In this document: positions 11,472-50,332 of the stretch, one piece after another | How the letters are laid out: each line of letters starts with the position of its first letter | Position numbering within the stretch: the first letter of the stretch is position 1 | From: Alphaproteobacteria bacterium | GTDB taxonomy: Bacteria > Pseudomonadota > Alphaproteobacteria > MPNO01 | Reading direction: 5' to 3' | Length of the DNA: 64,000 nucleotides | NCBI GenBank assembly: GCA_965117055.1 | Contig: OZ220750.1 | Location: 4,271,977 to 4,335,976, forward strand | Made by a program: the position numbers and the translations under genes | The notes under the pieces: model-generated | What the model was told of the DNA's origin: nothing | The model's input: the letters and a program-made list of their open reading frames with translations, nothing else | Databases searched by the model: none

Positions 11472-19883
<8,412 letters not shown>

Positions 19884-24817: not shown

Positions 24818-24944
24818 GGACCCGCCGAACTAGGCGATCTGACTTCCCATGTCAACGACATGAAAAGGTCGAAAGCGCCCGTCCCGGACCATGGGAGGCG
24901 CGCCATGCAGGATTAGTCGTTCGGTTAATGACGATCCCGATTAT

Positions 24945-25698
24945 AGTCGCTCCCATGACGAGAAACAAGGGCAAGCGGCGGGGGCGCGAAAGCCGCTCCG
25001 CGGTCTGGCTCTACGGCCGCCACGCGGTGGCCGCGGCGCTTGCCAATCCGAAGCGCGGGCGGGTCCGGTTTCTCGCCGAGAACGAGGCCGCTGCGGCCTT
25101 CGCGGAGCACGCGCCCGAGATCGTCGAGCGCGCGGTGCTGCGCCAGGTGCTGCCGGAGGGCGCGGTGCACCAGGGGCTCGCCCTCCTCGCGGAGCCCTTG
25201 CCGGATGCCGGGCTCGACTCGCTTCTGCGCGCGGCGGAGGCGCGGAAACGCGCGGCGCTGGTGGTCCTCGACCGGGTGCAGGACCCGCAGAACGTGGGCG
25301 CCGTCCTGAGAAGCGCCGCGGCGCTCGGCGCGCTCGGCATGGTGATCCCGGACCGCCGCGCCCCGCCGGAAACCGGCGCGCTGGCCAAGGCGGCTTCGGG
25401 CGCGCTCGAACGCGTGCCGGTGATCCGGGCCGCCAACCTCGCCCGCGCGCTGGCCGCGATGAAGGCGCGCGGGTTCTGGTGCGTCGGTTTCGACGCCGAT
25501 TCGGAAACCGAGCTCTCGCCGGGCGCGCTGCCGGATCGCTGTGCGCTGGTGCTCGGCGCGGAGGGCGGCGGGCTGCGCCGGCTGACGGCGGAGACCTGCG
25601 ACCTGATGCTGCGGATCCCGATGGAGGAAGGGGCGGCGAGCCTCAACGTCTCGGCCGCCGCGGCGATCGCCCTCTACGCCCACTCCCAGGGAACGTGA
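24945..25698 (+). CDS. SpoU/TrmH-family RNA 2'-O-methyltransferase (RlmB-like 23S rRNA Gm methyltransferase)
   Basis: The C-terminal 250 aa of the listed ORF (MTRNKGKRRGRESRSAVWLYGRHAV...VLDRVQDPQNVGAVLRSAAALG...LVLGAEGGGLR...SLNVSAAAAIALY) carry SpoU methylase motifs. An alternative ATG lies at 24918. The 5' part of the 720-aa ORF is antisense read-through of tuf. Confidence 0.8.
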
Positions 25699-25704
25699 AC
25701 CCGC

Positions 25705-27108
25705 TCAGGCGGGGCAGGCAATCGCGCGGTGCAGGGCGCGCACCGCCTGGACGAAACACTCCATCGGGGCGGCGGTGATGCCGGCGCCGATCTGCCCGAT
25801 CCCGGCCTCCCGGTGGGCGATCCCGGTGTTGACGATGGGTAGAATCCCGCTGTCGGCGACCTTGCGCACGTCGATCCCGGCCGGCGCGGCGGCGAAATCG
25901 AGGATCGGCAGGGTGAAGGCCGGGTTCTCGCCGATGGTCACCCGGCGCATCTCGCGGCTGGCGGCGATCGCCTCGCTCGCGCTGCCGCCGACGAAGCGGA
26001 CGATGGCGGGCGCCGCGGCCATGGCGAATCCGCCGAGCCCGGCGGTCTCGGTGATCGCGCTGTCGCCGATATCGCGCGCCGCGTCCTCCCGGGAGAAACC
26101 GGAGAAGTAGAGCCCCTCGACGACGGGCGCGGGGGCGGCGAACCAGCGGTCGCCCGTTCCGCTCATCTGGATGCCGAACTCCACGCCGTTCCGCGCCATC
26201 GCGATGACCATCGACGAAAACGGCACGTCGTGCGCGGCGTCGAGCATCGCCTTGCAGGCCGCCATCGAGAGGTTGATGAAGAAGTGGTCGTTGCCGGCCA
26301 TGAACGCGAACGCCCGGGAAACCGCGTCGGGATCGGCGCCCGAGCGGAGCGCCGGCGGAACCAGCCGCTTGATCAGGAGCGAGGTGGCCGCCGCGTTGCG
26401 GTTATGCGCCTCGTCGCCCATGTGGAGCGCCTGCGCGATCAGCGGCTTGAGCGCGATGGGACCGCTCTCGTCGAGCGCGCGGGCGAGGATGCCGGCGAGC
26501 TCGCCCCGCATCCAGCGCAGCCGTTCGATCACCTCGGGTCCGTTGGCGCCGAACCGCAGCACCTTGCCGAGCCCCTCGTTGAGCCCGGAACAGGCGACAT
26601 TCCCGGCGTCGGCGTTCTCCACGATCCACATCGGCATCGAGGGCGAGGTGACACCGGACATCGGACCCACCGCGCAATGGTGGTGGCACGAATCGAATTC
26701 GATCCCGCCCGCATCCACGAGCGCGCGCGCCGCATCGAGATCGTCGGCCCAGCCTTCGAACAGCACCGCGCCCAGCACCGCGCCCCGCATCGGCCCGCAC
26801 ATCTCCTCCCAGGCCACCGGCGGGCCGGCGTGGAGGATCGTGCGCGCGCCCATCCCCGGCAGCACGTCGATCGCCGGCCCGATTCCCTGCACCGTGGGCT
26901 CCGCGGCCAGGAAGCGTCCGAACGCGGCCCGGTTCGCGGCTTCGATTTGCGTATGCTCCACCAGGGTCGCGAGTTCCATCCCGGCCTCGCGCGACCCGCC
27001 GGCCGGGGGTCGCCAGTCGATGTCGCGGACGGCGCCTCCTTCCTCCTGTATGGCCTCGGCGAACGCCCCGATGCCAAGATTGAGCACCGCGGGGGCGCGT
27101 TTCAGCAT
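25705..27108 (-). CDS. DUF1116-family protein (YlbE-like)
   Basis: Start placed at MLKRAP (GGGGAGG SD upstream, 8 nt after the fdrA-like stop). Blocks HAGPP..W.EMCGPMRGA..GA.LFEGWA, CHH..AVGPM.G.TS.SMPM..VEN, LNEG.GKV.RFGA.G, DSAITET.G.GG.AMAAAP..VRFVG and NTGIAHREAGIGQIGAG resemble E. coli YlbE/DUF1116 as I recall it. This needs HMM confirmation. Confidence 0.7.
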   Translation of the reverse strand: MLKRAPAVLNLGIGAFAEAIQEEGGAVRDIDWRPPAGGSREAGMELATLVEHTQIEAANRAAFGRFLAAEPTVQGIGPAIDVLPGMGARTILHAGPPVAWEEMCGPMRGAVLGAVLFEGWADDLDAARALVDAGGIEFDSCHHHCAVGPMSGVTSPSMPMWIVENADAGNVACSGLNEGLGKVLRFGANGPEVIERLRWMRGELAGILARALDESGPIALKPLIAQALHMGDEAHNRNAAATSLLIKRLVPPALRSGADPDAVSRAFAFMAGNDHFFINLSMAACKAMLDAAHDVPFSSMVIAMARNGVEFGIQMSGTGDRWFAAPAPVVEGLYFSGFSREDAARDIGDSAITETAGLGGFAMAAAPAIVRFVGGSASEAIAASREMRRVTIGENPAFTLPILDFAAAPAGIDVRKVADSGILPIVNTGIAHREAGIGQIGAGITAAPMECFVQAVRALHRAIACPA

Positions 27109-27116
27109 GTCTTCGC

Positions 27117-28607
27117 TCACGCCGCCTCCCCGCCCGAGATTTCGGCCGCGGCGCGCGCCGCGCGGGCATTGCTCTCGGCGACGATCATGCCGGCCTCGCG
27201 CAGCGCCGCCTCCTGGCGTGACAGGCATTGGGGATCGGCGTCGGTACCGCACACCGAGCCGACTACGGCCGGACCGTCGATTTGGCGGATCGCGGGCGCG
27301 AGGACGGAGGCGGGGTCCTCGTGCGCGCCGGTCCCGAGCACGACGTCGATCAGGATCGCGGCGGTGTCGGGGGCCGAGGCGGCGTCCCGGATACGCTCCA
27401 GCCGGAGGCCGAAATCGATCATCGGATGCGGCCGCCCGCGGGTGAAGGCGTCGTCCCCCAGATCGAGCATGACATGCGCCCCGCCGGGATTGCCGTCCAG
27501 CGCGTCGCCGGGATCGAGCGGCGCGTTGGAAAGAATCCGTCCGAGAACGGGCGCCGCGACCGCCTGGGCCTCGTAACAGAAGGTGCCGCCGCTGAAGAGG
27601 CCGACGAGCCGGTTCCGGCCGGGCGTCCGGGGGACATCCGGCGGAGCGTTCGGAATCGGAGCGCCCGCCGCGAGGCAGGCCGCCTCTTCGAGCGTCGCCG
27701 CGAAACGCACGTTACCGGGGAGGGCCTTCGGCAGGGCCGCGCCGATGAGACAAGCGACGACCGGCTTCCCGGTCCCCGAGGCGGCGTCGAGCACGCGGCG
27801 CATCACGGAATCGTCGGGAGGCTTGGAGACCAGGACGACGGTCCGGGTGGCCTCGTCGTCGGCCAGCATGGCGAGCGCGCGCAGCGTCGTCGCTCCCCCG
27901 ATTTCGGCCGACAGGTCCCGCCCGCCGGTCCCGATGGCGTGCGAGATCCCCGCGCCGCATCGGTCGACCAGGCAGGCGACCTGCTGCAACCCGGTGCCGG
28001 AAGCTCCGACCGCGCCGACATCGCCGCGCCGCACCCGGTTCGCGAAGCCGAGCGGCACGCCGCCGACGATCGCGGTGCCGCAATCCGGGCCCATGACCAG
28101 CCTGCCGCGCTCTTCGGCCTCGCGTTTCAGGGCGATTTCGTCGTCGAGCGAAACGTTGTCGGAGAAGATCATCGCGTCGAGCCCGAGGCGGAGCGCCTTC
28201 ATCGCCTCCGCCGCGGCGTACTCGCCGGGGCAGGAGATCAGCGCGAGGGTCGCGCCGGGCAGGGCTTCCCTCGCCTCGGCGAGGCTGCGGGGCCGCCCGG
28301 GTGGGGTATCGTCACCAGCGGCGGTCGGGGACCCGGCTTCGCTCTCAAGCAAGGCCGCCGCCGCGTCGAGCGCTTCCGCGAGAACCTCGCCGTCATCTCC
28401 CTCCACGACCACCAGGAGATCGTTCGGCCCGGCTCCCGTCTCCGCGACCGGTACGCCGTGCTCGGCCAGCATTTCTAGGTTGGCGGGCGTCGCCATTACC
28501 GCAGACGCCCGCGTGACGCCGGGCCGCGCTTCGAGCGCCGCGGCGAGGCGCATCAGGGTCACGGAGTCGCGGTAGAGGCCGCGCAGCAGCAGCGTCTCGA
28601 CCGCCAT
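27117..28607 (-). CDS. fdrA: FdrA-like protein (acyl-CoA synthetase NDP-forming alpha-domain / CoA-binding fold)
   Basis: 496 aa. Motifs LLRGLYRDSVTLMRL, VMATPANLEML, LALISCPGEYAAAEAMKALRLGLDAMIFSDNVSLDDEIALKREAEERGRLVMGPDCGTAIVGGVPLGFAN, GASGTGLQ and HAIGTGGRDLS track E. coli FdrA closely. Confidence 0.8.
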   Translation of the reverse strand: MAVETLLLRGLYRDSVTLMRLAAALEARPGVTRASAVMATPANLEMLAEHGVPVAETGAGPNDLLVVVEGDDGEVLAEALDAAAALLESEAGSPTAAGDDTPPGRPRSLAEAREALPGATLALISCPGEYAAAEAMKALRLGLDAMIFSDNVSLDDEIALKREAEERGRLVMGPDCGTAIVGGVPLGFANRVRRGDVGAVGASGTGLQQVACLVDRCGAGISHAIGTGGRDLSAEIGGATTLRALAMLADDEATRTVVLVSKPPDDSVMRRVLDAASGTGKPVVACLIGAALPKALPGNVRFAATLEEAACLAAGAPIPNAPPDVPRTPGRNRLVGLFSGGTFCYEAQAVAAPVLGRILSNAPLDPGDALDGNPGGAHVMLDLGDDAFTRGRPHPMIDFGLRLERIRDAASAPDTAAILIDVVLGTGAHEDPASVLAPAIRQIDGPAVVGSVCGTDADPQCLSRQEAALREAGMIVAESNARAARAAAEISGGEAA

Positions 28608-28616
28608 CGGGGTGCC

Positions 28617-29726
28617 TTACGCGGGCAGCTTGTCCATGTCGACGATCGCCGCCACCATCCCGCCGCCGGCCGGCCCCTGCTGGAGCGCGGCGACCGAGAC
28701 GAAGACCGCCGGATCGCCGACCGCGGCCGAGACCACCCCGCCCACCGTCGCCTTTGTCGTAAGGGTGTGGTGCACGTCGGAATCGTTGAGCGAGACCTGC
28801 CGCCTGCCGCGCAGCCGCCCGGTCGGGTCGGTCTCGCACTTGACGAAGCAGTTGACCAGCGCATCGCCGAGATCCGACGGGTGCGGCCGGTCCGGCAGGT
28901 TCAGCCCGGCGTCGCGGATCGCCTCGTAGATCCCGTCCGTGTCGATCGCGTCCTTCATCACCGAATGGCCGATGCGGAACCGGCCGCCGGCGCCCTTCCG
29001 GTTGCCGACGACGACGATCTGCGCCGCCAGCTGCTCGTTGCCGCTGGAGCACGACGCGACCGACGAATAGACGTCGAAGTCTTTCCCGATCTGGTCCTCG
29101 CGCGGCATCGGGATCTCGCCGAGCGCGTAACCGATGCCGAGCGCCGCGGTGGCGTTGGCGATCGACATCGATTCCATGGTCTCCTCGGTGGCCACGGTAT
29201 GGCCGCGCGCCTTGGCGTCGGCGATGGTCTCGACGGTGAGCAGGGGGGACTTGGACTGGACGTAGTGGATGTCGGACGCATCCTCGATGCCGGCGTCCAG
29301 CATCGCGAGCTTCACCCCCGCGGCGACCTTCTCCACGCCCGCCGGCCGGCCGATGTCCTCGGGCGCGATCGCCTCGGACATGGCGATGCCCATGGCGAGC
29401 CGTTCGGCCTCCGGGTCGGCATCGGGATCGTCCACCCGCGCGAACACGTTGATATGGGGCGAGATGACGCCGGGGCAGCCGCCCGACAGCGCGATCGGCA
29501 CCCGCATGGCGGCCTCGCGTCCGCCGCTCCCCCCGGCCACCAGGAAGTCGCGCAGCACCCGGTCGACCAGGATGCGGCCCAGATCGTTGACCCCGCCATT
29601 GCCCTCGGTCTTGGCGACCAGCGCCACGATGTCGTCGACGCCGAACCCCTCCTCCGCCATCGCCGCCTCGATGCCGGCGGTATCCTGAACGCTCTCCATC
29701 GGAACCTTGCGGGCGACGATCGCCAT
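28617..29726 (-). CDS. Ring-opening amidohydrolase of the cyanuric acid hydrolase (AtzD/TrzD) / barbiturase family
   Basis: 369 aa. KTEGNGGVNDLGR, ALSGGCPGVISPHINVFAR, HYVQSKSPLL, SLNDSDVHHTLTTKATVGGVVSAAVG and QQGPAGGGMVAAIV parallel the AtzD blocks KTEGNGCVND, SGGTEGVLSPHHTVFAR, HFVQVKCPLL, LSDSDINSTRHARAVTGAAIASVVG and HQGPAGGG. The length and three-repeat architecture are typical of the family. Confidence 0.8.
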   Translation of the reverse strand: MAIVARKVPMESVQDTAGIEAAMAEEGFGVDDIVALVAKTEGNGGVNDLGRILVDRVLRDFLVAGGSGGREAAMRVPIALSGGCPGVISPHINVFARVDDPDADPEAERLAMGIAMSEAIAPEDIGRPAGVEKVAAGVKLAMLDAGIEDASDIHYVQSKSPLLTVETIADAKARGHTVATEETMESMSIANATAALGIGYALGEIPMPREDQIGKDFDVYSSVASCSSGNEQLAAQIVVVGNRKGAGGRFRIGHSVMKDAIDTDGIYEAIRDAGLNLPDRPHPSDLGDALVNCFVKCETDPTGRLRGRRQVSLNDSDVHHTLTTKATVGGVVSAAVGDPAVFVSVAALQQGPAGGGMVAAIVDMDKLPA

Positions 29727-29824
29727 GGCTTCCCCCTTCGATTTCCCGTAACCCTGCCCCGCAGGCTAGCAGAGACGCCGCCGCGCTTGAACGCGGGCCG
29801 GAGCGGCGCTATTTGTGGCCGGCT

Positions 29825-29900
29825 GCCGGATTAGCTCAGATGGTAGAGCGGCTGATTTGTAATCAGCAGGTCGGCGGTTCGAGCCCGTCATCCGGCACCA
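29825..29900 (+). tRNA. tRNA-Thr (anticodon TGT)
   Basis: GCCGGATTAGCTCAGATGGTAGAGCGGCTGATTTGTAATCAGCAGGTCGGCGGTTCGAGCCCGTCATCCGGCACCA. Acceptor stem GCCGGAT/ATCCGGC, anticodon loop TTTGTAA, encoded CCA. Confidence 0.85.
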
Positions 29901-30603
29901 GCCTTTTCGTTGGTATACGGGTAGAATACGTCAGGGTTGTCGCCCTATTTTGTCACTTTCGACAGCGAGTTTGTCGCCGTTGTCCTCGTTTTGAGCTCGA
30001 CGATGGCCACGCGGGGGAGGCGTTCCTTGTTGGCGCCGTGCGTCAACCGCCTGCCATCACGGCCTACCGATAGCCTGTGATCGCCATGATCTCGCGGTCC
30101 GTCGCGCATGCTTCGGCAAGCCGCGCGTGCGTAGTAGGGGCCGTGAAACTTGGGACCTTTCAAGCCCAAGCGGCCCGACCCCGACAATTTTGCCAAGGCC
30201 GCAATCGACGCTTGCAGCAGCAGCGCATCCCGGACGCCTTCGCTTGGCTGGGGGGCTCGGGGTCGCCGCACGCGCCCGCCCCGTCCAGCTGATGTTTCTT
30301 GTGGGCTCCAAGTCGAGCGGCAGCACCTTCTACAACACGGGGCAGCCTGCGCTCACACAAGCTGATTGGGTATCCCGCCCCGGGATAGGCGGTTGCGCTG
30401 CTGGTGTCGTTCGTCGAGAGGTGGCGGGCTTCCGAACGTCCAGATGTGTACGGGGCAGTGCAGGGGCCCCGGTCCTTTCCAAGTTGCCGTTCAGGCGACC
30501 GGAGCGCATATTCCGCGCCGGTCCCGGAAAGCCAAGGAAAAGCAAACAAAACCCCGGGCGCATACCAGATGGCAGAGGCGGGTCCGGAGCGTACGAGGTG
30601 AAT

Positions 30604-31322
30604 ATGGCCAGTCGGACGACGGACGTCAAGCGGTTCTCCTACACAGACGATATCCTAGGCCAACTCTCAGTCTCGCTGTCGGAGGAGCGCCTGACCACCT
30701 ATCTTGATGCTGCCGATGGAGACCGCAAACGGGCCATTCGCCTGCACGTCTGGAACACGGGCATCAGCGCCGCGTTCTACGGGCCGCTGCAGGGGCTGGA
30801 GGTGGCGCTGCGCAACGCGATGCACCGGCGCCTTGCCGGCGCGTACGGCGAAACCTGGTACGACAATGGCAACGCGGAGCTCGACGCGGGCGCAAGGGAG
30901 CAAATCGTCCACGTGCGCGCACGCCTAGCGGGTGATGGCCGCGCCGACAACCCCCACCGAATTGTTGCGGGGTTGTCTTTCGGGTTCTGGGTTGCGCTGC
31001 TGCGTCGCGGAGGCCCCTTGGCGACGGCCGCAGGGCGGATTACGAGATGACGCTCTGGCGACCAGCCCTGCGCGGGGCATTCCCGCATTGCGCCTCCCTC
31101 AATCGCAGGCAGGCCCACCAGCCATTAGACGCATTGCGGTTGTTGCGCAACCGGACCGCTCATCACGAGCCGATTTTCACGCGAGACTTGGCGGAGGACC
31201 ACGACCGGATACTCGAAGTGGTGGGATGGATTTCTCCAGAGACGCGGAGGTGGATCGCCCACCACAGCCGCGTTCCTGGATTGCTCCAGACTTCGCGCTA
31301 CGCGGGAAAATCCGGGTTTTGA
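30604..31322 (+). pseudogene. Abi_2-family (AbiD/AbiF-like) abortive-infection gene, interrupted by a frameshift near 31010-31046
   Basis: The N-terminal piece MASRTTDVKRFSYTDDILGQLSVSLSEERLTTYL...GLSFGFWVALLRRG (GAGGTGA SD) ends at 31050. The continuation in another frame (31047-31322) carries LWRPALRGAFPHCASLNRRQAHQPLDALRLLRNRTAHHEPIF, which fits the conserved Abi_2 RNR.AHH.R.WN motif. Together they are about 240 aa. Confidence 0.65.
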
Positions 31323-31648: not shown

Positions 31649-31693
31649 GTTGTAATCTCCAGGCCAGCGGTTCGAGCCCGTCATCCGGGACCA
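31649..31693 (+). repeat. Direct repeat of the tRNA-Thr 3' half (putative attR of an integrated element)
   Basis: TTGTAATCTCCAGGCCAGCGGTTCGAGCCCGTCATCCGGGACCAGCC versus tRNA 29859-29903 TGTAATCAGCAGGTCGGCGGTTCGAGCCCGTCATCCGGCACCAGCC. About 40/46 bases are identical and the T-arm and acceptor are perfectly conserved. Confidence 0.75.
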
Positions 31694-31848
31694 GCCGTGC
31701 GCCTCCGCCCAGATAGACGGTTGCCAACGCTTCGCCGGTCATCCATAAGGTTCGCGGCATATTCCCGTGACCGGTCGTCGAGGCGTGCGCGTCCCATGCC
31801 GCCGTGCCCTCGTCCCCTGGCAGTCGACCGAAGGACGAGGAGACGGTC

Positions 31849-33816
31849 ATGACCGGCGCCGCGAACGCGCTCCCGGATATTACGCTCCACGACACCTCGC
31901 CCAAGCTGCTCCGGTGGAACGCGGAGACGCGCGGCGGCCGGCCCTGCCTGAGGGAGAAGCATCTCGGCATCTGGGAGACCATGACCTGGAGCGAAGCCGC
32001 GGCTAACGCGAGGCAAATCGCCTGCGGGCTCAAGACCCTCGGCATGGCGCGTGGCGACCGGGTGTCGATCATCGGCGACAACCGGCCGGTGCTCTACAAC
32101 GCGATCCTCGCGATCCAGTCGCTCGGCGGCGTGCCGGTGCCGATCTACCAGGATTCGGTGGCCGACGAGACGCGCTACGTCCTCAACAACTCCGAGGTGC
32201 GCTTCGTCTTCGCCGAGGACCAGGAACAGGTCGACAAGGTCCTGGAGATCAAGCCCGACTGCCCGACCATCGAGGGGGTGATCTACGACGACCCGCGCGG
32301 GCTCAGGAACTACCGCGAGGCGTTCCTGTGCAGCACCGAGGACCTGATGCGGGACGGCCGGGCATACGACGCCGCGAATCCCGGGTTCTACGACGCGGAA
32401 GTCGACCGGGGAACGCCGGACGACACCTCGGTCATCCTCTATACCTCCGGCACCACCGGCAATCCGAAGGGCGTCGTCCTTTCCTACCGGAACGTGCTGG
32501 TCAGCGCGATGAACTCGGTGCGGCTGGAGGGGCTCGGCGAGACCGACGAGGTGCTGGCCTATCTGCCGATGGCCTGGGTGGGCGATCACATGTTCTCCTG
32601 CGGGCAGGCGCTGGTGGCGGGTTTCTGCGTGTCCTGCCCGGAATCGTCCGACACCGTGCTCAACGATCTGTGGGAGGTGGGGCCGACCTATTTCTTCGCG
32701 CCGCCCCGGATCTTCGAGAACGTCCTGACCACGGTGATGATCCGCATCCAGGACTCGGGCTGGGTGAAGCGGAAGCTGTTCTTCCACTTCCTCGAGATCG
32801 CGAAGCTGTACGGCAAGAAGATCCTCGACGGCGAGAAGGTCGCGTTGGCGAACCGTCTCCACTACGCGCTCGGCTCGCTGCTGATCTTCCGGCCGCTGAT
32901 GAACACGCTCGGGCTGACCAGGGTGAAGCTCGGCTACACCGCCGGGGAGGCGATCGGGCCCGACATCTTCGACTTCTACCGCAGCATCGGTTTCAACCTG
33001 AAGCAGCTTTACGGCATGACCGAGGCGAGCGTGTTCATCACCATCCAGCCGAACGGCGAGGTCCGGTCGGACACCGTGGGGCGGCCGGCGACCGAGGTCG
33101 AGCTCAGGATCGAGGGCAACGAGGTCCAGTTCCGCAGCCCCGGCGTGTTCGTCGAGTACTTCCGCAACCCGGAAGCGACCGCGGAGACCAAGACCGAGGA
33201 CGGCTGGTGCCGCACCGGCGACGCCGGCTTCATCGACGCCGAGGGCCACCTCAAGATCATCGACCGCGCCAAGGATGTCGGCCGTCTGAACGACGGCACG
33301 CTGTTCGCGCCCAAATACATCGAGAACAAGCTCAAGTTCTTCCCCGACGTTTTCGAGGCCGTCAGCTTCGGCCACGAGCAGGACTACGTGACGGCCTTCA
33401 TCAACATCGACCTCGAAGCGATGGGCGACTGGGCGGAGCGCAACGGCATCTCCTATGCCAGCTACCAGGAGCTCGCCGGCCTGCCGCAGGTCTACGACAT
33501 CGTCCAAAGGCGGGTGGAGCAGGTGAACCGGGATCTCGCCGCGGACTCCGATCTCGCCGGCGCGCAGATCAGGCGCTTCCTCGTGCTCCACAAGCAGCTC
33601 GACGCGGACGACGGCGAGCTGACCCGGACCCGGAAGGTCCGCCGCCGCCACGTCTCGGACAAGTACGGCTCCCTGATCGAGGCGCTCTATTCCGGGCAGG
33701 ACCGTTGCGGGATCGAGACCGAGGTGACGTTCGAGGACGGCCGCAAGGGCATGGTGCGCGCCGATCTGCAGATCCGGGACGTCGCCCCGTCCGAAGCGGA
33801 GAGGAGCGCCGCGTGA
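31849..33816 (+). CDS. AMP-dependent synthetase/ligase (long-chain-fatty-acid--CoA ligase family)
   Basis: Start at MTGAANALPDITLHD. It has the AMP-binding motif YTSGTTGNPKGV and a C-terminal ligase domain. The listed ORF has a short upstream extension. Confidence 0.85.
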   Translation: MTGAANALPDITLHDTSPKLLRWNAETRGGRPCLREKHLGIWETMTWSEAAANARQIACGLKTLGMARGDRVSIIGDNRPVLYNAILAIQSLGGVPVPIYQDSVADETRYVLNNSEVRFVFAEDQEQVDKVLEIKPDCPTIEGVIYDDPRGLRNYREAFLCSTEDLMRDGRAYDAANPGFYDAEVDRGTPDDTSVILYTSGTTGNPKGVVLSYRNVLVSAMNSVRLEGLGETDEVLAYLPMAWVGDHMFSCGQALVAGFCVSCPESSDTVLNDLWEVGPTYFFAPPRIFENVLTTVMIRIQDSGWVKRKLFFHFLEIAKLYGKKILDGEKVALANRLHYALGSLLIFRPLMNTLGLTRVKLGYTAGEAIGPDIFDFYRSIGFNLKQLYGMTEASVFITIQPNGEVRSDTVGRPATEVELRIEGNEVQFRSPGVFVEYFRNPEATAETKTEDGWCRTGDAGFIDAEGHLKIIDRAKDVGRLNDGTLFAPKYIENKLKFFPDVFEAVSFGHEQDYVTAFINIDLEAMGDWAERNGISYASYQELAGLPQVYDIVQRRVEQVNRDLAADSDLAGAQIRRFLVLHKQLDADDGELTRTRKVRRRHVSDKYGSLIEALYSGQDRCGIETEVTFEDGRKGMVRADLQIRDVAPSEAERSAA

Positions 33817-33847
33817 GCGCACCGGAAGACGCGGCCGCCGGGGCGCC

Positions 33848-34610
33848 GATGCTTCGCCTGGACAGGATCTCCCTCGCCTTCGGCGGGGTCACGGTGCTCG
33901 ACGACGTGAGCTTCGACATCCGCGAGGGAGAGATCCGCGCGATCATCGGCCCCAACGGCGCCGGCAAGTCGTCGATGCTCAACGTGATCAACGGCTTCTA
34001 CCACCCGGACGACGGCACCATCACCTACAAAGGCGAGACCCGGACGCGGATGCGGCCGGACCAGGCGGCGCGGCAGGGGATCGCCCGGACCTTCCAGAAC
34101 ATCGCCCTGTTCCGCGGCATGAGCACGCTCGACAACATCATGACCGGGCGCAACACGATGATGCGCCGGAACTTCCTCTGGCAGGCGCTCTATCTCGGCC
34201 CGGCGCGGCGCGAGGAGCTCGAGCACCGGGCGCATGTCGAGAGGGTCATCGAGTTTCTCGAGATCGAGGCCATCCGGCGGGTTCCGGTCGGGCGTCTGCC
34301 CTACGGGCTGCAGAAGCGAGTGGAGCTCGGCCGGGCGCTCGCCGCCGAGCCCGATCTCCTCCTCCTCGACGAGCCGATGGCCGGTATGAACTCGGAAGAA
34401 AAAGAGGACATGTGCCGGTTCGTGCTCGACGTGAACGACGAGTTCGGGACGACGATCGCGCTGATCGAGCACGACATGGGCGTGGTGATGGATATTTCGG
34501 ATCGCGTGGTGGTTCTCGATTACGGCCGTCTGATCGCCGACGGCTCGCCCGACGAGGTGCGCGGGAACGAAGAGGTCATCGCCGCCTATCTCGGCGTGGT
34601 GCACGACTGA
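33848..34610 (+). CDS. livG: Branched-chain amino acid-type ABC transporter ATP-binding protein (LivG-like)
   Basis: MLRLDRISLAFGGVTVLDDVSFDIREGEIRAIIGPNGAGKSS with Walker A, LSYGLQKRVELGRAL and LLLDEP. An alternative GTG start at 33813 overlaps the upstream stop. Confidence 0.88.
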
Positions 34611-34634
34611 CGGCGGGCGAGCGGGGAAGCGGGC

Positions 34635-35573
34635 ATGGAGTTTCTCGAGTCGGTCACGGTCACCCCGTTCGTCATGATCGCGCAGGACTTCCCGGTGTTT
34701 TTCGGCGAGGTCGTGTTCAATGGCGTTCTGACCGGCGTGCTCTATTCGCTGGTGGCGCTCGGTTTCGTGCTGATCTTCAAGGCGTCCGGGGTGTTCAACT
34801 TCGCGCAGGGCGCGATGGTGCTGTTCGCCGCGCTCACCCTGGTCGGGCTGATGGAGCTCGGCCTGCCGGTATGGCTCGCCTTCATCCTCACCATGGGAGC
34901 GATGGTGGCGCTGGCCTATCTGGTCGAGCTGCTGGTGCTCCGGCACCTGGTCAATCAGCCGGACATCATCCTGTTCATGTCGACCATCGGGCTGACCTTC
35001 TTCCTGGAAGGGTTCGGAGAGACGTTGTGGGGCTCCAACGTCAAGAAGCTCGACATCGGAATCCCGGATGTCCCCGTCGATGTCGTCGGGATGCTGTTCA
35101 ACAGCTTCGACCTGATCGCGGCGCTCGCCTGCGCCCTCCTGGTGACCGGGCTCGCGTTCTTCTTCCAGTACACGCCGACCGGGCGGGCGCTCCGGGCGGT
35201 CGCCGACGACCATCAGGCAGCGCTCGCGGTGGGCATTCCGCTGAAGAAGATCTGGATCATCGTCTGGTCGGTCGCCGGCATCGTGGCGCTTGTCGCCGGG
35301 ATCGTCTGGGGCGCCAAGAGCGGGGTGCAGTTCTCGCTTTCCCTGATCGCGCTCAAGGCCCTGCCGGTGCTGATCCTGGGCGGCTTTACCTCGGTGCCGG
35401 GGGCCATAGTGGGCGGCCTGATCATCGGCGTCGGCGAGAAGATCGCGGAAGTCTACTGGGGTCCCGCGGTCGGCGGCGCCATCGAGAACTGGTTCGCCTA
35501 CGTGCTGGCGCTGGCTTTCCTGTTCGTGCGGCCGCAGGGCCTGTTCGGCGAGCGGATCATCGAGAGGGTCTGA
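34635..35573 (+). CDS. livH: ABC transporter permease (LivH-like)
   Basis: 312 aa polytopic membrane protein with a LivH-type N-terminus VFNGVLTGVLYSLVALGFVLIF. Confidence 0.88.
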   Translation: MEFLESVTVTPFVMIAQDFPVFFGEVVFNGVLTGVLYSLVALGFVLIFKASGVFNFAQGAMVLFAALTLVGLMELGLPVWLAFILTMGAMVALAYLVELLVLRHLVNQPDIILFMSTIGLTFFLEGFGETLWGSNVKKLDIGIPDVPVDVVGMLFNSFDLIAALACALLVTGLAFFFQYTPTGRALRAVADDHQAALAVGIPLKKIWIIVWSVAGIVALVAGIVWGAKSGVQFSLSLIALKALPVLILGGFTSVPGAIVGGLIIGVGEKIAEVYWGPAVGGAIENWFAYVLALAFLFVRPQGLFGERIIERV

Positions 35574-35576
35574 TTC

Positions 35577-36653
35577 ATGCTTTACCGGGAAACAGGCCAG
35601 TTCAAGACGACCTACGCCGCCGACCAGGCGATTTTTCCGATCTTCCAGGACCGCGTTTTCCTGTTTGCGGCGATCGCGTTCGCTTATGTCGCAATTCCCC
35701 TGATCGCGTCGGAATACATGCTCCAGGCCGTGTTGATTCCGATGATGATTTTTTCGATCGCCGCGCTGGGTCTGAACATTCTGACCGGCTACGCCGGCCA
35801 GCTTTCGCTCGGCACGGGGGCCTTCATGGCGATGGGCGCCTATTCGGCTTACAAGATCACCACCGGGTTCCCGGAGCTCAACATCATCGTTGTTTTTGTG
35901 CTGTCGGGCGTGGCGGCCGCGCTGGTCGGTATCGTGTTCGGACTCCCCAGCCTGCGCATCAAGGGATTTTATCTCGCCGTCGCCACGCTGGCGGCGCAAT
36001 TCTTCCTGATCTGGATGTTTAATCGTGTCCCGTGGTGGTACAATTACCATTCCAGCGGGACGATTACCGCTCCGCCGCGCGAGGTCGCCGGCATCATGCT
36101 CACCGGCCCGACGGCGACCGCCGAGACGCGCTACCTGCTGGTTCTCACATTCTGCGTCCTGGGCGGCCTGCTCGCCAAGAACCTGGTGCGGAGCAGGGTC
36201 GGACGGCACTGGATGGCGATCCGGGACATGGACATCGCCGCCGAAATCATCGGGATTCGCCTGCTCCCCAACAAGCTGCTCGCCTTCGCCATCAGCTCGT
36301 TCTATTGCGGGGTGGCCGGGGCGTTGCTGCTGTTTTCCTATCTCGGCAGCGCCGAAACCGAGGCTTTCGACATATTCGTCTCCTTCGACGTCCTGTTCAT
36401 GATCATCATCGGCGGGCTGGGCAGCATCCTCGGAGCCTATCTCGGCGCCGCCTTCATCTGGCTGTTGCCCATATTCCTCACCAACGCGCCGCAACTTGTC
36501 GGACTGTACATGCCGGTCGATTTCCAGAAGCACCTGGAAGTCATGATCTTCGGCTCGCTGATCGTCGTTTTCCTGATTTTCGAGCCGGCCGGGCTCGCCC
36601 GGCTGTGGCAGATCGGCAAGGAAAAGCTGAGGCGATGGCCGTTCCCGTATTGA
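35577..36653 (+). CDS. livM: ABC transporter permease (LivM-like)
   Basis: 358 aa; LivM-like with GYAGQLSLGTGAFMAMGAY. Confidence 0.88.
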   Translation: MLYRETGQFKTTYAADQAIFPIFQDRVFLFAAIAFAYVAIPLIASEYMLQAVLIPMMIFSIAALGLNILTGYAGQLSLGTGAFMAMGAYSAYKITTGFPELNIIVVFVLSGVAAALVGIVFGLPSLRIKGFYLAVATLAAQFFLIWMFNRVPWWYNYHSSGTITAPPREVAGIMLTGPTATAETRYLLVLTFCVLGGLLAKNLVRSRVGRHWMAIRDMDIAAEIIGIRLLPNKLLAFAISSFYCGVAGALLLFSYLGSAETEAFDIFVSFDVLFMIIIGGLGSILGAYLGAAFIWLLPIFLTNAPQLVGLYMPVDFQKHLEVMIFGSLIVVFLIFEPAGLARLWQIGKEKLRRWPFPY

Positions 36654-36780
36654 CGGGTTCGGTTGACGCCGGATTCGGGCGCGTGATAGCGTTTCCCGCG
36701 CGTTCCGGGTTGGAATTTTCGCGGGTCGGGCGATGTCGGGCCGGCGGGCGTAAACGTCAATCACCTCAAGGGAGGACCTC

Positions 36781-38106
36781 ATGAACCTCAAGAAACTGGG
36801 CCTGGTGCTGACCGCGGCGGTGGTCGGCCTGCCCGCCGTTCCGGTCACCGCGATGGCGGCGGGAGAAATGTTCATCCCGCTTCTCGTCTACCGCACGGGA
36901 CCGTACGCGCCGAACGGAATTCCGGCGGCGAACGGCATGGTCGACTACCTCAAACTCCTCAACGCGCGCGACGGCGGCATCAACGGCGTCAAGATCGTCT
37001 GGGAGGAATGCGAGACCAAGTACAACACGAAGCTGGGCGTCGAGTGCTACGAGAAGCTGAAGAAGAAGGGGCCGACCGGCGCCGCGATCGTCAATCCGTT
37101 CAGCACCGGCATCACCTATCAGCTCATCCCGAAGGCCTTCGTCGACAAGGTGCCGATCCATTCGATGGGCTACGGGCGCACCGCCGCGGGCGACGGGCGG
37201 GTCTTCAAATGGGCCTTCACCGCGCCGACCAGCTACTGGAGCCAGGCGACCGCCTTCATCAAGTACGTCGGCGAGCAGGAGGGCGGCCTCGACAAGCTCA
37301 AGGGCAAGAAGATCACGCTGATCTACCACAACAGCGCCTACGGCAAGGAGCCGATCCCGACGCTGAAGATCCTGTCCGGGAAGCACGGCTACAAGCTCGA
37401 TCTGCTTGCGGTCGACCACCCGGGCCAGGAGCAGAAATCGACCTGGCTGCAAATCCGCCGTCTGAAGCCCGATTACATCTTCATGTGGGGCTGGGGCGTG
37501 ATGAACCAGGTCGCGATCAAGGAGGCCGCCGCCATCAAGTTCCCGATGGACAAGTTCATCGGAGTCTGGTGGTCCGGTTCCGAGAGCGACGTCCGCCCCG
37601 CCGGCGAGGCCGCCAAGGGCTACAAGGCGGGCAACTTCCACGGCGTGGGGTCCGGCTACGACATCCACCAGCAGATCCTCAAGACGATCTACAAGGGCGA
37701 TGTCGCGGCGGCGAAGAAGAACAACTGGGGCGAGGTGCTCTACAATCGCGGGCTGACCAACATGGTCTACGACACCGAGGCCATCCGCACCGCGATGGGC
37801 AAGTTCGGCAACAAGCCGATGACCGGCGAGCAGGTCCGCTGGGGCATGGAGAACCTCAACCTCACCCAGGACAAGCTGACCAAGCTCGGCTTCAAGGACT
37901 TCATGCAGGCCCACCGCATCACCTGCGAGGATCACGAGGGCGGCGGACCCGTCATCTTCCAGCAGTGGGACGGCAAGCAGTGGAAGCTGATCTCGAAGTG
38001 GTACAAGCCGATGTACGACATCGTGCGCGAACAGGTCGAGAAGGAAGCCGCCAAGTACGCGAAGGAGAACAACATCACGCCTCGCGACTGCTCCAAGGAG
38101 GGGTAA
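36781..38106 (+). CDS. ABC transporter periplasmic substrate-binding protein (Leu/Ile/Val-binding family, Peripla_BP_6)
   Basis: 441 aa with a signal peptide MNLKKLGLVLTAAVVGLPAVPVTAMAAGE and a type I periplasmic binding fold. Confidence 0.88.
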   Translation: MNLKKLGLVLTAAVVGLPAVPVTAMAAGEMFIPLLVYRTGPYAPNGIPAANGMVDYLKLLNARDGGINGVKIVWEECETKYNTKLGVECYEKLKKKGPTGAAIVNPFSTGITYQLIPKAFVDKVPIHSMGYGRTAAGDGRVFKWAFTAPTSYWSQATAFIKYVGEQEGGLDKLKGKKITLIYHNSAYGKEPIPTLKILSGKHGYKLDLLAVDHPGQEQKSTWLQIRRLKPDYIFMWGWGVMNQVAIKEAAAIKFPMDKFIGVWWSGSESDVRPAGEAAKGYKAGNFHGVGSGYDIHQQILKTIYKGDVAAAKKNNWGEVLYNRGLTNMVYDTEAIRTAMGKFGNKPMTGEQVRWGMENLNLTQDKLTKLGFKDFMQAHRITCEDHEGGGPVIFQQWDGKQWKLISKWYKPMYDIVREQVEKEAAKYAKENNITPRDCSKEG

Positions 38107-38140
38107 GTCCTTCGCACCGAGTAGTAACGGAACCGTTGGC

Positions 38141-38953
38141 ATGGCGGAGAACGGAAGCGCCCTTCTCAATGTGAACAACATTGAGGTGATCTACGACCGG
38201 GTGATCCTGGTCCTCAAGGGCGTTTCCTTCCACGTTCCCGAGGGGGGCATCGTCGCCCTCCTCGGCGCCAACGGAGCCGGCAAGACGACCACGCTCAAGG
38301 CGATATCGAACCTGCTCAAGGCGGAGCGGGGAGACGTCACCAAGGGAACCATCGAGTATCGCAACGAACGGATCGAGAAGCTGACCGCCCACGACCTGGT
38401 CACCCGCGGCGTCGTGCAGGTGATGGAAGGGCGCCACTGCTTCGAGCATCTGACGGTCGAGGAAAACCTGCTGACCGGCGCCTATATCCGGGGCGACAAG
38501 AAGAACTTCGCCGACGACCTCGACATGGTCTACCGCTACTTCCCGCGGCTCAAGGAACGTCGCAGGGCGCAGTCCGGCTACACCTCGGGCGGCGAACAGC
38601 AGATGACCGCGATCGCCCGCGCGCTGATGACGCGCCCGAAGATGATGCTGCTCGACGAGCCGTCCATGGGGCTCGCCCCGCAGCTCGTCGAAGAGATCTT
38701 CGGGATTGTGTCGCGCCTCAACGAGGAGGAGGGCGTGACCATCCTGCTCGCCGAGCAGAACACCAACATGGCGCTGCGCTATGCGCGCTACGGCTACATC
38801 CTGGAGAACGGCCGCGTGGTTCTCGACGGCGAGGCCTCGACGCTGCGCGAGAACGAGGACGTCAAGGAGTTCTATCTCGGCCTCTCCACCTCCGGCCGCA
38901 AGAGTTACCGGGACGTGAAATCCTATCGCCGCCGCAAGCGCTGGCTCGCCTGA
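38141..38953 (+). CDS. livF: ABC transporter ATP-binding protein (LivF-like)
   Basis: 270 aa with GANGAGKTT, LSGGEQQM and LLDEPS. Confidence 0.88.
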   Translation: MAENGSALLNVNNIEVIYDRVILVLKGVSFHVPEGGIVALLGANGAGKTTTLKAISNLLKAERGDVTKGTIEYRNERIEKLTAHDLVTRGVVQVMEGRHCFEHLTVEENLLTGAYIRGDKKNFADDLDMVYRYFPRLKERRRAQSGYTSGGEQQMTAIARALMTRPKMMLLDEPSMGLAPQLVEEIFGIVSRLNEEEGVTILLAEQNTNMALRYARYGYILENGRVVLDGEASTLRENEDVKEFYLGLSTSGRKSYRDVKSYRRRKRWLA

Positions 38954-38957
38954 ACCG

Positions 38958-40190
38958 ATGACCGACTGTTTCGACGCGCTCGAGACGCGCTCTCCCGACG
39001 AGCGGGAGGCCCGGCTGATGGAAGCGCTGCCCGGGCAGGTGGCGCGCGCCAGGGAGACCGCCGGTCAGGCGGAGGTCCTTTCCGGTATCGAACCCCGCGA
39101 CATCGCCAGCCGGGAAGCGCTCGCGGAACTCCCGGTCATCCGCAAGAGCGATCTGATGGAACGCCAGGCCGAGATGCCGCCCTTCGGCGGGCTCAACCGG
39201 CTTCCGGACGGGAAGCTGACCCGCCTGTTCCTGTCGCCGGGGCCGATCGCCGAACCGCAGGGAAGGCGCCCCGATTACTGGCGGATGGCCCGCGCGCTCT
39301 ACGCCGCCGGGTTCCGCGCCGGCGACATCGTGCTCAACTGCTTCTCCTACCACTTCACGCCGGCCGGCATGATGTTCGACGGCGCTGCGGCGGCGATCGG
39401 CTGTCCGGTGATTCCGGGCGGCACCGGCCAGACCGAGAGCCAGATCGAGGCGATCCGCCGCTTCCGGCCGGTCGGCTATGCCGGCACGCCCGATTTCCTG
39501 AAGATCATCCTCGACAAGGCGGACGAGACCGGCGCCGACATCTCCTCGATCCGCCGCGGCGGGGTCGGCGGCGGCGCCCTACTGCCGCCGCTCCGCAAGG
39601 AATACGACGACCGCGGCATCGCCGTTCTGCAATCCTACGGCACCGCCGATGTCGGTCTGATCGCCTACGAGTCGGAGGCCCGGGAAGGCATGATCCTCGA
39701 CGAGGAGATCGTCGTCGAGATCGTCCGCCCGGGAACCGGAACCCCGGTGCCCGAAGGGGAAGTCGGCGAGGTTCTGGTCACGCTACTGGACGAGGACTAT
39801 CCGCTGCTCCGCTTCGCGACCGGCGACCTCTCCGCCATGATGCCGGGGCAGAGCCCGTGCGGCCGCACCGCGCCGCGCATCAAGGGATGGCTCGGCCGCG
39901 CCGACCAGCGGACCAAGATCCGCGGCATGTTCGTCGATCCCGCGCAGATCGACCGCGTCCTGGAACGCCACTCGGAGATCGGCCGGATGCGGCTTATCGT
40001 CAACGAGGAGGGCGGCATCGACGCTCCGGTTCTCCAGTGCGAGACCGGCGGCGGCCCGGAAGACCTCGCCGACGCCGTGGCCGGGACGTTCCGGTCCGAA
40101 TGCAAGTTGCGGGTCGCGGTCGAGCTCGTCGACGCCGGCAGCCTGCCGAACGACGGCAAGGTGATCGACGACCGGCGCGATTACGGCTGA
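38958..40190 (+). CDS. Phenylacetate-CoA ligase family protein (PaaK-like / coenzyme F390 synthetase-like adenylate-forming enzyme)
   Basis: 410 aa. PaaK-type features: NCFSYHFTPAGMMFDGAAAAIGCPVIPGGTGQTESQIEAI, GTPDFL and a C-terminal ACT-like part. Confidence 0.8.
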   Translation: MTDCFDALETRSPDEREARLMEALPGQVARARETAGQAEVLSGIEPRDIASREALAELPVIRKSDLMERQAEMPPFGGLNRLPDGKLTRLFLSPGPIAEPQGRRPDYWRMARALYAAGFRAGDIVLNCFSYHFTPAGMMFDGAAAAIGCPVIPGGTGQTESQIEAIRRFRPVGYAGTPDFLKIILDKADETGADISSIRRGGVGGGALLPPLRKEYDDRGIAVLQSYGTADVGLIAYESEAREGMILDEEIVVEIVRPGTGTPVPEGEVGEVLVTLLDEDYPLLRFATGDLSAMMPGQSPCGRTAPRIKGWLGRADQRTKIRGMFVDPAQIDRVLERHSEIGRMRLIVNEEGGIDAPVLQCETGGGPEDLADAVAGTFRSECKLRVAVELVDAGSLPNDGKVIDDRRDYG

Positions 40191-48909: not shown

Positions 48910-50031
48910 TCACCCTCCCTTGCCCTTGAAATAGCGGTGCGGAACGAACGGCAGCTTCGCGATGCGCGCCGGAAGCGCCTTGTCGCGGACGACGACCTCG
49001 ACGGCCCGACCCGCCTCGCTCGCTCCACTGGCGACGTAGCCCATCGCGACCGGCCCGCCGACGCTCGGCCCGAAGCTGCCGCTGGTGATCTCGCCGAGCG
49101 TGCCGCCGCCGGACTCCCGGATCTCCGTGTGCGCCCGCGCCGGCGCACGGCCCTCGGGCCGGATCCCGACGCGGCGGCGCGACGCGCCATTGGCGAGCTG
49201 GTCGAGGATCGCGCCGGCGCCGGGGAAACCGCCCTCCGCCCGCCTGCGCTTTCCGACGGTCCAGCCGAGCCCCGCCTCGACCGGCGTGACGGTCCGGTCG
49301 ATGTCCTGCCCGTAGAGGCAGAGCCCCGCTTCCAGCCTCAGCGTGTCGCGCGCGCCGAGCCCGGCCGGCTCCACTCCCGGAAGATCGAGCAGCATGCGGG
49401 CGATCCGTTCGGTGTCCTCGGCCGGTATCGAGATCTCGAACCCGTCTTCGCCGGTATAGCCGGAACGCGTGATGGCGAGCCTGACGCCGTCGATCTCGAA
49501 CGGCGCGGCGGCCATGAACGGGAGCGTATCGGCGCCCGGCGCCAGACCGGCGAGCGCCGAAGCCGCTCGCGGTCCCTGGAGCGCCACCAGCCCCCGATCG
49601 AGCTCCTCGACCGTGCATCCGGAAGGCAGCGCGGCACGGATATGGACGATGTCGGCCGCCTTGCAGGCGGCGTTGGCGACAATGAACAGGTAGCCGCCGA
49701 CATTGGTGACGATGAGATCGTCGAGTATGCCGCCGGCCTCGTCGGTGAGCATGGTATAGCGCATGCGGCCGGGCGCGAGCCCCCGGATGTCGGCCGGAAC
49801 GAGCGCCTCGAGAGCCCCTTCCCTGCCCTCGCCGCGGATGACCAGTTGGCCCATATGCGAGACGTCGAACAGCGAAGCCGCGCTTCGCGTGTGCAGGTGC
49901 TCCCGGACGATCCCGGTACCGTACTGGATCGGCATGTCGTAGCCCGCGAACGGCGCCATCCTGGCGCCGAGGGCCCGATGCAGTTCGGTCAGCGGTGTCG
50001 ATTTTGCCAGCCCGGCTTCGGGGTCGCTCAT
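48910..50031 (-). CDS. gcvT: Glycine cleavage system aminomethyltransferase T
   Basis: Start MSDPEAGLAKSTPLTELHRALGARMAPFAGYDMPIQY. Canonical GcvT, 373 aa. Confidence 0.93.
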   Translation of the reverse strand: MSDPEAGLAKSTPLTELHRALGARMAPFAGYDMPIQYGTGIVREHLHTRSAASLFDVSHMGQLVIRGEGREGALEALVPADIRGLAPGRMRYTMLTDEAGGILDDLIVTNVGGYLFIVANAACKAADIVHIRAALPSGCTVEELDRGLVALQGPRAASALAGLAPGADTLPFMAAAPFEIDGVRLAITRSGYTGEDGFEISIPAEDTERIARMLLDLPGVEPAGLGARDTLRLEAGLCLYGQDIDRTVTPVEAGLGWTVGKRRRAEGGFPGAGAILDQLANGASRRRVGIRPEGRAPARAHTEIRESGGGTLGEITSGSFGPSVGGPVAMGYVASGASEAGRAVEVVVRDKALPARIAKLPFVPHRYFKGKGG

Positions 50032-50040
50032 CGGGTCCTC

Positions 50041-50265: not shown

Positions 50266-50332
50266 TCTTCTGTGTAGCGCAGCGTCCGGCCCGAGCCGGA
50301 CAGGTTTTATCTAATGAGCCGGCAAATCCGCG

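Follow-up and report, generated by a model that had tools for sequence, protein, structure and literature searches.

The window analysed here, a 64,000-nucleotide (nt) stretch of an Alphaproteobacteria bacterium genome (assembly GCA_965117055.1, contig OZ220750.1, positions 4,271,977 to 4,335,976), carries on its minus strand a three-gene operon encoding a ring-opening amidohydrolase of the AtzD/TrzD/barbiturase family followed by homologues of AllF (FdrA) and AllG (YlbE), two subunits of the oxamate carbamoyltransferase of Escherichia coli. Judged from sequence comparison and by analogy with the E. coli enzyme, the chances appear evenly balanced that these genes form a self-contained catabolic module, in which barbiturase-type ring opening would be followed by AllF–AllG phosphorolysis of the product to carbamoyl phosphate, and this is the reading we favour. 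The families themselves are all known; their combination and the implied pathway appear to be new. An earlier reading of the window, made by a model from the letters and a list of open reading frames (ORFs) and called here the sequence-only reading, had stated that no described pathway is known to pair AtzD-family enzymes with FdrA/YlbE, and in agreement our full-text literature searches found no paper on such a pairing or on ureidomalonate phosphorolysis. We present the module as a well-supported lead and do not claim it as an established system.

The operon and its three proteins

The operon comprises the hydrolase gene (369 amino acids (aa); 28617..29726), the AllF/FdrA homologue (496 aa; 27117..28607) and the AllG/YlbE (DUF1116) homologue (467 aa; 25705..27108), all on the minus strand and separated by only 9 nt (TAA...ATG) and 8 nt (TGA...ATG), respectively. 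Direct reading of the sequence delimits a 98-nt leader on the same strand (29727..29824), extending from the divergent tRNA-Thr gene to the first ATG, which presumably contains the promoter region. A purine-rich, Shine-Dalgarno-like GAAGGGGGA is located in this leader close 5' of the hydrolase ATG. No match to the sigma-70 consensus was found in the leader, and an Rfam scan of it returned tRNA only, with no riboswitch or other element. At a GC content of about 66%, where long spurious ORFs are frequent, genes in the window were singled out by their codon-position GC, which marks all three operon genes as coding. Their GC at third codon positions (GC3) amounts to 0.94 for the hydrolase, 0.87 for AllF and 0.91 for AllG, equal to that of the housekeeping genes of the window (rpoBC, tuf). 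Recent horizontal transfer, as high GC might suggest, was rejected, since the GC excess sits at codon positions 1–2, with third positions on a par with those of rpoBC and tuf. Likewise, a possible fourth downstream gene (252-aa ORF, 24925-25683, minus strand) was discarded as the shadow of a plus-strand rlmB-type gene, based on its wrong GC-by-position pattern and the lack of a Pfam match. The three packed ORFs, the hydrolase motif blocks and the family assignments of the sequence-only reading were all borne out: the ORFs exist at its coordinates, every quoted block is present in the translation, and profile searches with Pfam and NCBIfam pointed to no unrelated family.

The hydrolase matched PF09663 (Amido_AtzD_TrzD) over residues 6–363 of 369 with 407 bits (E 1e-121; cut-off 25) and TIGR02714 with 410 bits (cut-off 153), identifying it as a Toblerone-fold ring-opening amidohydrolase. 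Alignment to reference enzymes located the three Ser–Lys dyads at K39/S81, K159/S227 and K296/S344 and the invariant Arg at R51, the family residues being Lys42/Ser85, Lys162/Ser233, Lys296/Ser344 and Arg54 in AtzD numbering (PMC3758960). Substrate specificity within the family follows a five-residue signature at AtzD positions 195/321/325/345/346 (Peat 2013), reading R-T-R-G-G in cyanuric acid hydrolases (Groups I–III) and N-H-K-V-S/A in barbiturase (Group VI, EC 3.5.2.1) (PMC3758960). The window hydrolase exhibits N191-T321-K325-V345-A346 and thus shares four of the five barbiturase residues, namely Asn, Lys, Val and Ala at AtzD positions 195/325/345/346. The His at position 321 is replaced by Thr321, the residue of the cyanuric acid hydrolases, in the window enzyme as well as in all 21 members of its clade; this Thr is the only point of agreement with the cyanuric acid hydrolase signature.

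Comparison with solved structures gave a consistent picture, with the best match obtained for the Rhodococcus erythropolis barbiturase 5HWE (411 bits), whereas cyanuric acid hydrolases scored 195–262 bits. At the sequence level, the window hydrolase shares 56% identity with the Rhodococcus barbiturase but no more than 43% with any cyanuric acid hydrolase. The motifs GNGG and VQ[ST]K[ST]P are common to the window hydrolase and barbiturase, the corresponding cyanuric acid hydrolase motifs being GNGC and VQ[IV]KCP. In a neighbour-joining tree of 93 sequences the barbiturase-like proteins form two clades. Clade A, with the signature NHKV[A/S/D], unites 66 loci with the R. erythropolis enzyme that has been characterised, and its sister, clade B, comprises 21 loci, all with NTKVA, from the window, other alphaproteobacterial metagenome-assembled genomes (MAGs) and sponge-type Acidimicrobiales MAGs. 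The NCBIfam equivalog NF052395 'cyanuric acid amidohydrolase' also passes on the window hydrolase (387 bits, cut-off 360), but we regard this model as over-inclusive here, since the specificity residues contradict its name. Signatures of the N..K-V type were seen in all 80 nearest loci of the genome survey described below, and many database names in the AtzD family are probably wrong. Between the two ring openings considered in the sequence-only reading, of cyanurate or of barbiturate, signature and bit scores therefore favour the barbiturate-like side and not the cyanuric acid hydrolase type. Together, these comparisons suggest an enzyme of the barbiturase type, the substrate of which may be somewhat different from plain barbiturate.

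The AllF homologue scored 465 bits against the NCBIfam FdrA model NF004760 (cut-off 433) and contains Ligase_CoA and CoA_binding domains; it is a subunit of the oxamate carbamoyltransferase type that resembles the alpha chain of succinyl-CoA synthetase. It is 40% identical to AllF of E. coli K-12 over 490 aa and matched the E. coli FdrA structure 3DMY with 293 bits. For AllG, the match to PF06545 (E 1.6e-93, 313 bits) identifies a family now named 'Oxamate carbamoyltransferase subunit AllG' and previously DUF1116; the protein is 49% identical to YlbE/AllG of E. coli K-12 and matched the uncharacterised structure 3CLQ with 425 bits. The C-terminal tail of the E. coli FdrA protein has its counterpart in the first ~50 residues of the window AllG, with AllG residues 2–41 matching positions 507–546 of the FdrA model and residues 7–54 matching E. 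coli AllF 512–555. As the summed length of both proteins (963 aa) matches that of the E. coli pair (974 aa), no extra domain stands in for the third subunit AllH, and what differs is only the point at which one protein ends and the other begins.

AllH itself (YlbF, DUF2877, PF11392) was not detected in the window. A tblastn search of the window yielded no match with an E-value below 0.003 and none over full-length AllH, and a profile built here, which finds E. coli AllH at 72 bits, gave no match in the 64 kb. Neither was AllH found in the related loci L001, L003, L004, L005 and L083. The subunit may be encoded at another place in the genome, beyond the stretches searched. Thus, of the fdrA/ylbE/ylbF-type oxamate transcarbamylase invoked by the sequence-only reading, the first two subunits have clear homologues, but the third is without a match in the window. 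For the E. coli enzyme, purified AllFGH was shown to interconvert oxamate plus carbamoyl phosphate and oxalurate (Kim & Kim 2024, PMC11326118). In the same study, an allH deletion retained ~7% of oxamate formation and a plasmid carrying allFG brought the triple mutant back to ~7%. Oxalurate/oxamate is the only substrate pair shown for this enzyme, identified in 2024 in one organism.

Recurrence of the gene pairing and its cluster partners

We surveyed genomes with an AtzD-family alignment, using one genome per species, and analysed the best 80 of roughly 600+ loci (58–96% identity) along with two additional loci, L001 and L083, obtained by exact protein look-up. In 18 of these 80 nearest loci, as well as in L001 and L083, AllF and AllG lie no more than 10 kb from the AtzD-family gene, in most cases directly downstream of the hydrolase. 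Taking a 20-kb neighbourhood as ~0.5% of a genome, fewer than one linked locus per 80 would be expected by chance. Based on record titles, the linked loci belong to five phyla, represented by Alphaproteobacteria, Actinomycetota (Acidimicrobiia, Nitriliruptoria and others), Gemmatimonadales, Candidatus Dormibacteraeota and Saprospiraceae. The order hydrolase–AllF–AllG without an intervening gene is exhibited by five alphaproteobacterial loci. In four of them, the MAG loci L001 and L003–L005, the unit is adjacent to rlmB–tuf as in the window, and in L083 it is positioned between a restriction/defence island and unrelated genes. The presence at two different chromosomal sites within the Alphaproteobacteria indicates that the three genes move as a unit. 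In the linked genome loci outside the Alphaproteobacteria AllH (PF11392) is inserted, resulting in the order hydrolase–AllH–AllF–AllG.

To view the pairing from the side of AllG, metagenomes were scanned with an AllG alignment, which yielded 80 loci with 50–67% identity to the window AllG. Their usual layout is AllH–AllF–AllG–carbamate kinase, AllH being present in 24 and absent from 6 of the 30 loci with enough flanking DNA. The commonest conserved neighbours are isochorismatase-family genes (21 loci), members of the family of biuret and triuret hydrolases (BiuH/TrtA-like), followed by allophanate hydrolase and PF04199 'cyclase' genes (15 loci each), and additionally a GntR regulator and a nucleobase permease. 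These neighbourhoods agree with and extend the remark that allFGH–allK lies beside biuH in nitrifier MAGs, which was read there as oxalurate catabolism, with atzD not found (PMC12625717). An AtzD-family gene adjoins AllG in four of the 80 metagenome loci. The one in L122 has the barbiturase signature and its locus no AllH, whereas those in L143 and L148, which follow directly after AllG, display RTRGG, the genuine signature of cyanuric acid hydrolases, and share 66% identity with known enzymes. The fourth, in L141, is truncated at the contig end and its signature is not scorable; this locus has an AllG near-identical to that of L143 and also holds an isochorismatase-type gene, AllH and carbamate kinase.

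In an AllG tree including E. coli YlbE, the AtzD-family-linked AllGs are found at no fewer than four separate places, comprising a clade of 14 members that are all barbiturase-linked, the window clade with 5 members, L122, and two further placements linked to cyanuric-acid-hydrolase-type genes (L141 with L143; L148). Among the observations made here, this repeated independent clustering is the strongest argument for a functional coupling. Recurrent co-occurrence, the absence of which the sequence-only reading had named in advance as a reason to abandon the idea, was hence observed both among the nearest genome loci and at several points of the AllG tree.

The composition of the clusters in other lineages provides further hints. 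A xanthine-dehydrogenase-family trio (flavin adenine dinucleotide, 2Fe-2S and molybdopterin subunits) is present in nine AllFG-positive loci, mostly directly after AllG. It remains below every specific NCBIfam equivalog cut-off and is a candidate uracil/thymine dehydrogenase producing barbiturate, with xanthine oxidation as the alternative. Carbamate kinase (NF009007, 284–314 bits, cut-off 266) is encoded inside the cluster in L023, L025, L060 and L072. Kinase and dehydrogenase trio are what the idea of a route to carbamoyl phosphate, and hence adenosine triphosphate (ATP), predicts. The Acidimicrobiia-type loci contain a 252-aa protein without a family match followed by thiolase-like and DUF35-type proteins. 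In barbiturase-type loci devoid of AllFG we observed CN-hydrolase, family III CoA-transferase, carboxyltransferase and hydantoinase A/B genes, of which the CoA-transferase and carboxyltransferase fit the classical route ending in malonate. Furthermore, in 25 loci (L019–L081, mostly Streptosporangiales; for example L029 9054-11095) a carbamate kinase gene immediately precedes the barbiturase-type gene, with the same orientation and a distance of at most 300 nt; most of these loci are without AllF/AllG within 10 kb.

Two side observations concern these partners. A conserved ~250-aa protein (L057 18566-19324; no Pfam/NCBIfam match) accompanies the molybdenum trio and AllFGH, often with thiolase-like and DUF35-type genes 3' of it, and has relatives in L031, L038, L052, L062, L072, L076, L134, L153, L159 and L164. 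The PF04199 'cyclase' (kynurenine formamidase/isatin hydrolase family) follows AllG in L134 (4938-5873), L154 (11383-12210) and L159 (11408-12235), loci sharing some partners of the barbiturase clusters (molybdenum trio, 252-aa unknown, thiolase), and may represent a non-homologous replacement of the ring-opening step.

Proposed pathway and alternative explanations

In the pathway we propose, the Ser–Lys amidohydrolase would open a pyrimidine-2,4,6-trione-type ring, as its family and specificity residues suggest. Barbiturate itself or a closely similar compound, perhaps carrying substituents, would serve as the substrate, and the product would be ureidomalonate or the corresponding analogue, an N-carbamoyl amide. 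For the second step, gene linkage and chemical analogy point to an AllF–AllG enzyme that would move the carbamoyl group to phosphate, yielding carbamoyl phosphate and malonamate. Carbamoyl phosphate could then provide ATP via carbamate kinase, which is encoded in the cluster of other lineages and not in the window, or feed arginine/pyrimidine synthesis. In the alphaproteobacterial lineage, the AllF–AllG enzyme would act without AllH. The analogy rests on the series oxalurate (H2N-CO-NH-CO-COO-), ureidomalonate (H2N-CO-NH-CO-CH2-COO-) and carboxybiuret (H2N-CO-NH-CO-NH-COO-), where ureidomalonate is the barbiturase product and carboxybiuret the product of cyanuric acid hydrolase and triuret hydrolase. 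A more general proposal, that AllF–AllG-type enzymes are general acylurea phosphorylases that would conserve as carbamoyl phosphate the ureido group of ureidomalonate derived from pyrimidines, carboxybiuret derived from triazines and oxalurate derived from purines, including a replacement of ureidomalonase and an AllH-free two-subunit form in the window, is put forward tentatively, its likelihood falling somewhat short of even.

Several observations weigh against the proposed module. AllH is absent from the window although E. coli lacking allH retains only ~7% of oxamate formation, and neither carbamate kinase nor a xanthine-dehydrogenase trio nor a malonamate amidase was found within the 64 kb. 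The hydrolase groups in clade B, apart from the clade of the characterised barbiturase, and its subgroup carries Pro85 and Gln349 where the compared reference enzymes have Asp/Glu and His; together with Thr321, these features imply that the substrate may not be barbiturate. The window AllG shares 56–67% identity with AllGs of AllH–AllF–AllG–carbamate kinase clusters located by isochorismatase-type and allophanate hydrolase genes, and only 47–53% with the actinobacterial barbiturase-linked AllGs. In the closest relative, L003 (~91% nucleotide identity), AllG is split by a ~2.9-kb insertion with an IS66-family transposase (13429-16347), indicating that the module can be lost. Finally, the 25 mostly AllFG-less loci with an adjacent kinase mean that the kinase link is not explained by AllFG alone.

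Alternatively, the hydrolase could be a cyanuric acid hydrolase, with AllF–AllG using phosphate to cleave carboxybiuret (or else biuret or allophanate) and releasing carbamoyl phosphate together with allophanate, urea or carbamate. The NF052395 match, the RTRGG enzymes directly after AllG in L143 and L148 with the truncated AtzD-family gene likewise placed in L141, the isochorismatase-type and allophanate hydrolase genes around the nearest AllG relatives, and the published allFGH–allK beside biuH (PMC12625717) would all fit. However, Asn, Lys, Val and Ala replace Arg195, Arg325, Gly345 and Gly346 in the window enzyme, its score to barbiturase exceeds the best one to cyanuric acid hydrolases by far, and barbiturase was reported inactive on cyanuric acid (PMC4051656), rendering a cyanurate pathway quite unlikely for the window. 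Low probability, though slightly higher, is also assigned to an ordinary oxamate carbamoyltransferase acting on oxalurate, with the AtzD-family enzyme making oxalurate from, for example, parabanate (oxalylurea) or serving a parallel branch of purine breakdown. The identities of AllF (40%) and AllG (49%) to E. coli proteins for which oxalurate/oxamate is the sole substrate pair shown speak for it, and xanthine-dehydrogenase-type trios accompany AllFGH in 10–11 metagenome loci without an AtzD-family gene, where purine oxidation would also fit. In contrast, no allantoin-pathway gene (allB/C/D/E type) was present among the scanned neighbours, in the window or in linked loci, one whole AllG clade is exclusively barbiturase-linked, and the AtzD-family active site suits six-membered triketo rings, with no known five-membered-ring substrate (PMC3758960).

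AllF–AllG might instead carry out other chemistry on the ring-opened product, such as nucleotide-dependent CoA ligation or an acyl-phosphate step without formation of carbamoyl phosphate. This is consistent with the CoA_binding and Ligase_CoA domains of AllF, to which alpha chains of succinyl-CoA synthetase come next closest among solved structures, with the thiolase-like and DUF35-type genes 3' of the cluster in Acidimicrobiia-type loci, and with the absence from the window of AllH, which the E. coli carbamoyltransferase needs. Yet E. coli AllFGH makes oxalurate from oxamate and carbamoyl phosphate, no CoA requirement being mentioned in the portion of the report available (PMC11326118), and carbamate kinase is recurrent in the clusters, so that we judge this option improbable, to a degree similar to the oxalurate alternative. 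Least probable of all, and very unlikely, is an adjacency devoid of functional meaning, in which the genes would be neighbours by descent or chance. The arrangement could be inherited within the window lineage, and the IS66 insertion shows the pair to be dispensable in L003, but the shared strand with 8–9 nt gaps, the linkage in five phyla as named in the records, the independent points in the AllG tree and the occurrence of the unit at two chromosomal sites all speak against it.

Genomic surroundings and relation to known systems

On its downstream side, the operon faces a SpoU/RlmB-type rRNA methylase gene (~24955-25698, plus strand), which converges on the AllG stop with a 6-nt gap, is kept in related MAGs and sits between the operon and a tRNA-Tyr/Gly–tuf cluster. 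The placement of the operon between this cluster and tRNA-Thr in the sequence-only reading holds, but the rlmB-type gene intervening on the tuf side went unmentioned there. On the opposite side, a 47-nt direct repeat of the tRNA-Thr 3' half (29857-29903 and 31650-31696, 89% identical) has the appearance of an att-type scar. It flanks a 1.8-kb segment without convincing coding signal, which looks like a decayed integrated element. The ORF 30127-31050 inside this segment has no Pfam match, and the segment is unlike that of the closest MAG locus, L003, where a separate 57-nt repeat of a tRNA fragment is present. The sequence-only reading was right about an island remnant at tRNA-Thr, but the operon is outside it; we rejected the operon as island cargo because the att-like repeat flanks the other side of the tRNA. 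Nor was the accessory-like context supported, the operon occupying a conserved site by rlmB–tuf in four related MAGs. The central idea of the sequence-only reading hence survives with corrections, concerning the barbiturase type of the hydrolase, the missing AllH and the location outside the island.

Next to the operon lie rlmB, tRNA genes, a gene for an AMP-binding enzyme and the genes of a Liv-type ATP-binding cassette (ABC) transporter. The ~250-aa unknown and the thiolase of other-lineage clusters were not found in the window. Upstream of the island scar, 31804-40190 (plus strand) encodes two AMP-binding (acyl-CoA synthetase-type) proteins and the Liv-type ABC transporter, consisting of two permeases, a binding protein and an ATPase, without evident link to the operon. 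Further away, a tandem glycine riboswitch (50079-50269, minus strand; RF00504, 75 + 41 bits) precedes a gene for a gcvT-type aminomethyltransferase; the program-made ORF 48910-50310 runs too far and reaches into this riboswitch.

Oxidative pyrimidine breakdown is a route known from the 1950s onwards, and to our knowledge no genes have been assigned to its uracil dehydrogenase and ureidomalonase. If the proposed pathway is correct, AllF–AllG in barbiturase-linked clusters would supply the missing gene for the step after barbiturase, with a yield of ATP. The linkage to barbiturase- and cyanuric-acid-hydrolase-type enzymes gives candidates for a phosphorolytic, ATP-conserving branch of ureide catabolism and bears on a wider substrate range of AllFGH as well as on the role of AllH. 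For annotation, it is relevant that many genes called 'cyanuric acid amidohydrolase' by the equivalog model carry the barbiturase signature.

Compared with E. coli AllFGH and AllK, the window has AllF and AllG homologues side by side in the same order, and the proposed chemistry would by analogy be alike, an N-carbamoyl amide being cleaved by phosphate with release of carbamoyl phosphate. The window differs in having no AllH, AllK or allantoin genes nearby, in a barbiturase-type upstream partner in place of ureidoglycolate dehydrogenase, in the shifted AllF/AllG boundary, the E. coli AllF tail forming the head of the window AllG, and in a predicted substrate larger by one CH2. The arginine deiminase and agmatine deiminase pathways likewise keep a ureido group as carbamoyl phosphate and then ATP. 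The energy logic would be the same, although the AllF/AllG fold is unrelated to the aspartate and ornithine transcarbamylase (ATCase/OTCase) fold and the substrate would be an acylurea rather than an alkylurea.

The oxidative pyrimidine pathway of R. erythropolis proceeds via uracil/thymine dehydrogenase, barbiturase and ureidomalonase (Soong et al., as cited in PMC3758960 and PMC4051656). Here the window hydrolase is nearest to barbiturase among solved structures and in its specificity residues, and the clusters of other phyla hold a molybdenum dehydrogenase trio as a possible uracil dehydrogenase, whereas the hydrolytic ureidomalonase reaction (to urea and malonate) would give way to a phosphorolytic step. 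The window hydrolase belongs to the sister clade with Thr321 in place of His321, and no dehydrogenase is encoded in the window. Cyanuric acid mineralisation (AtzD/TrzD, then AtzEGH or BiuH, then AtzF) employs the same ring-opening family and likewise generates an N-carbamoyl product. Apart from the Thr, the window enzyme lacks R-T-R-G-G, and no biuret or allophanate hydrolase is encoded in the operon, but elsewhere AtzD-family genes do stand by AllF–AllG, with the cyanuric acid hydrolase signature in L143 and L148 and in truncated form in L141.

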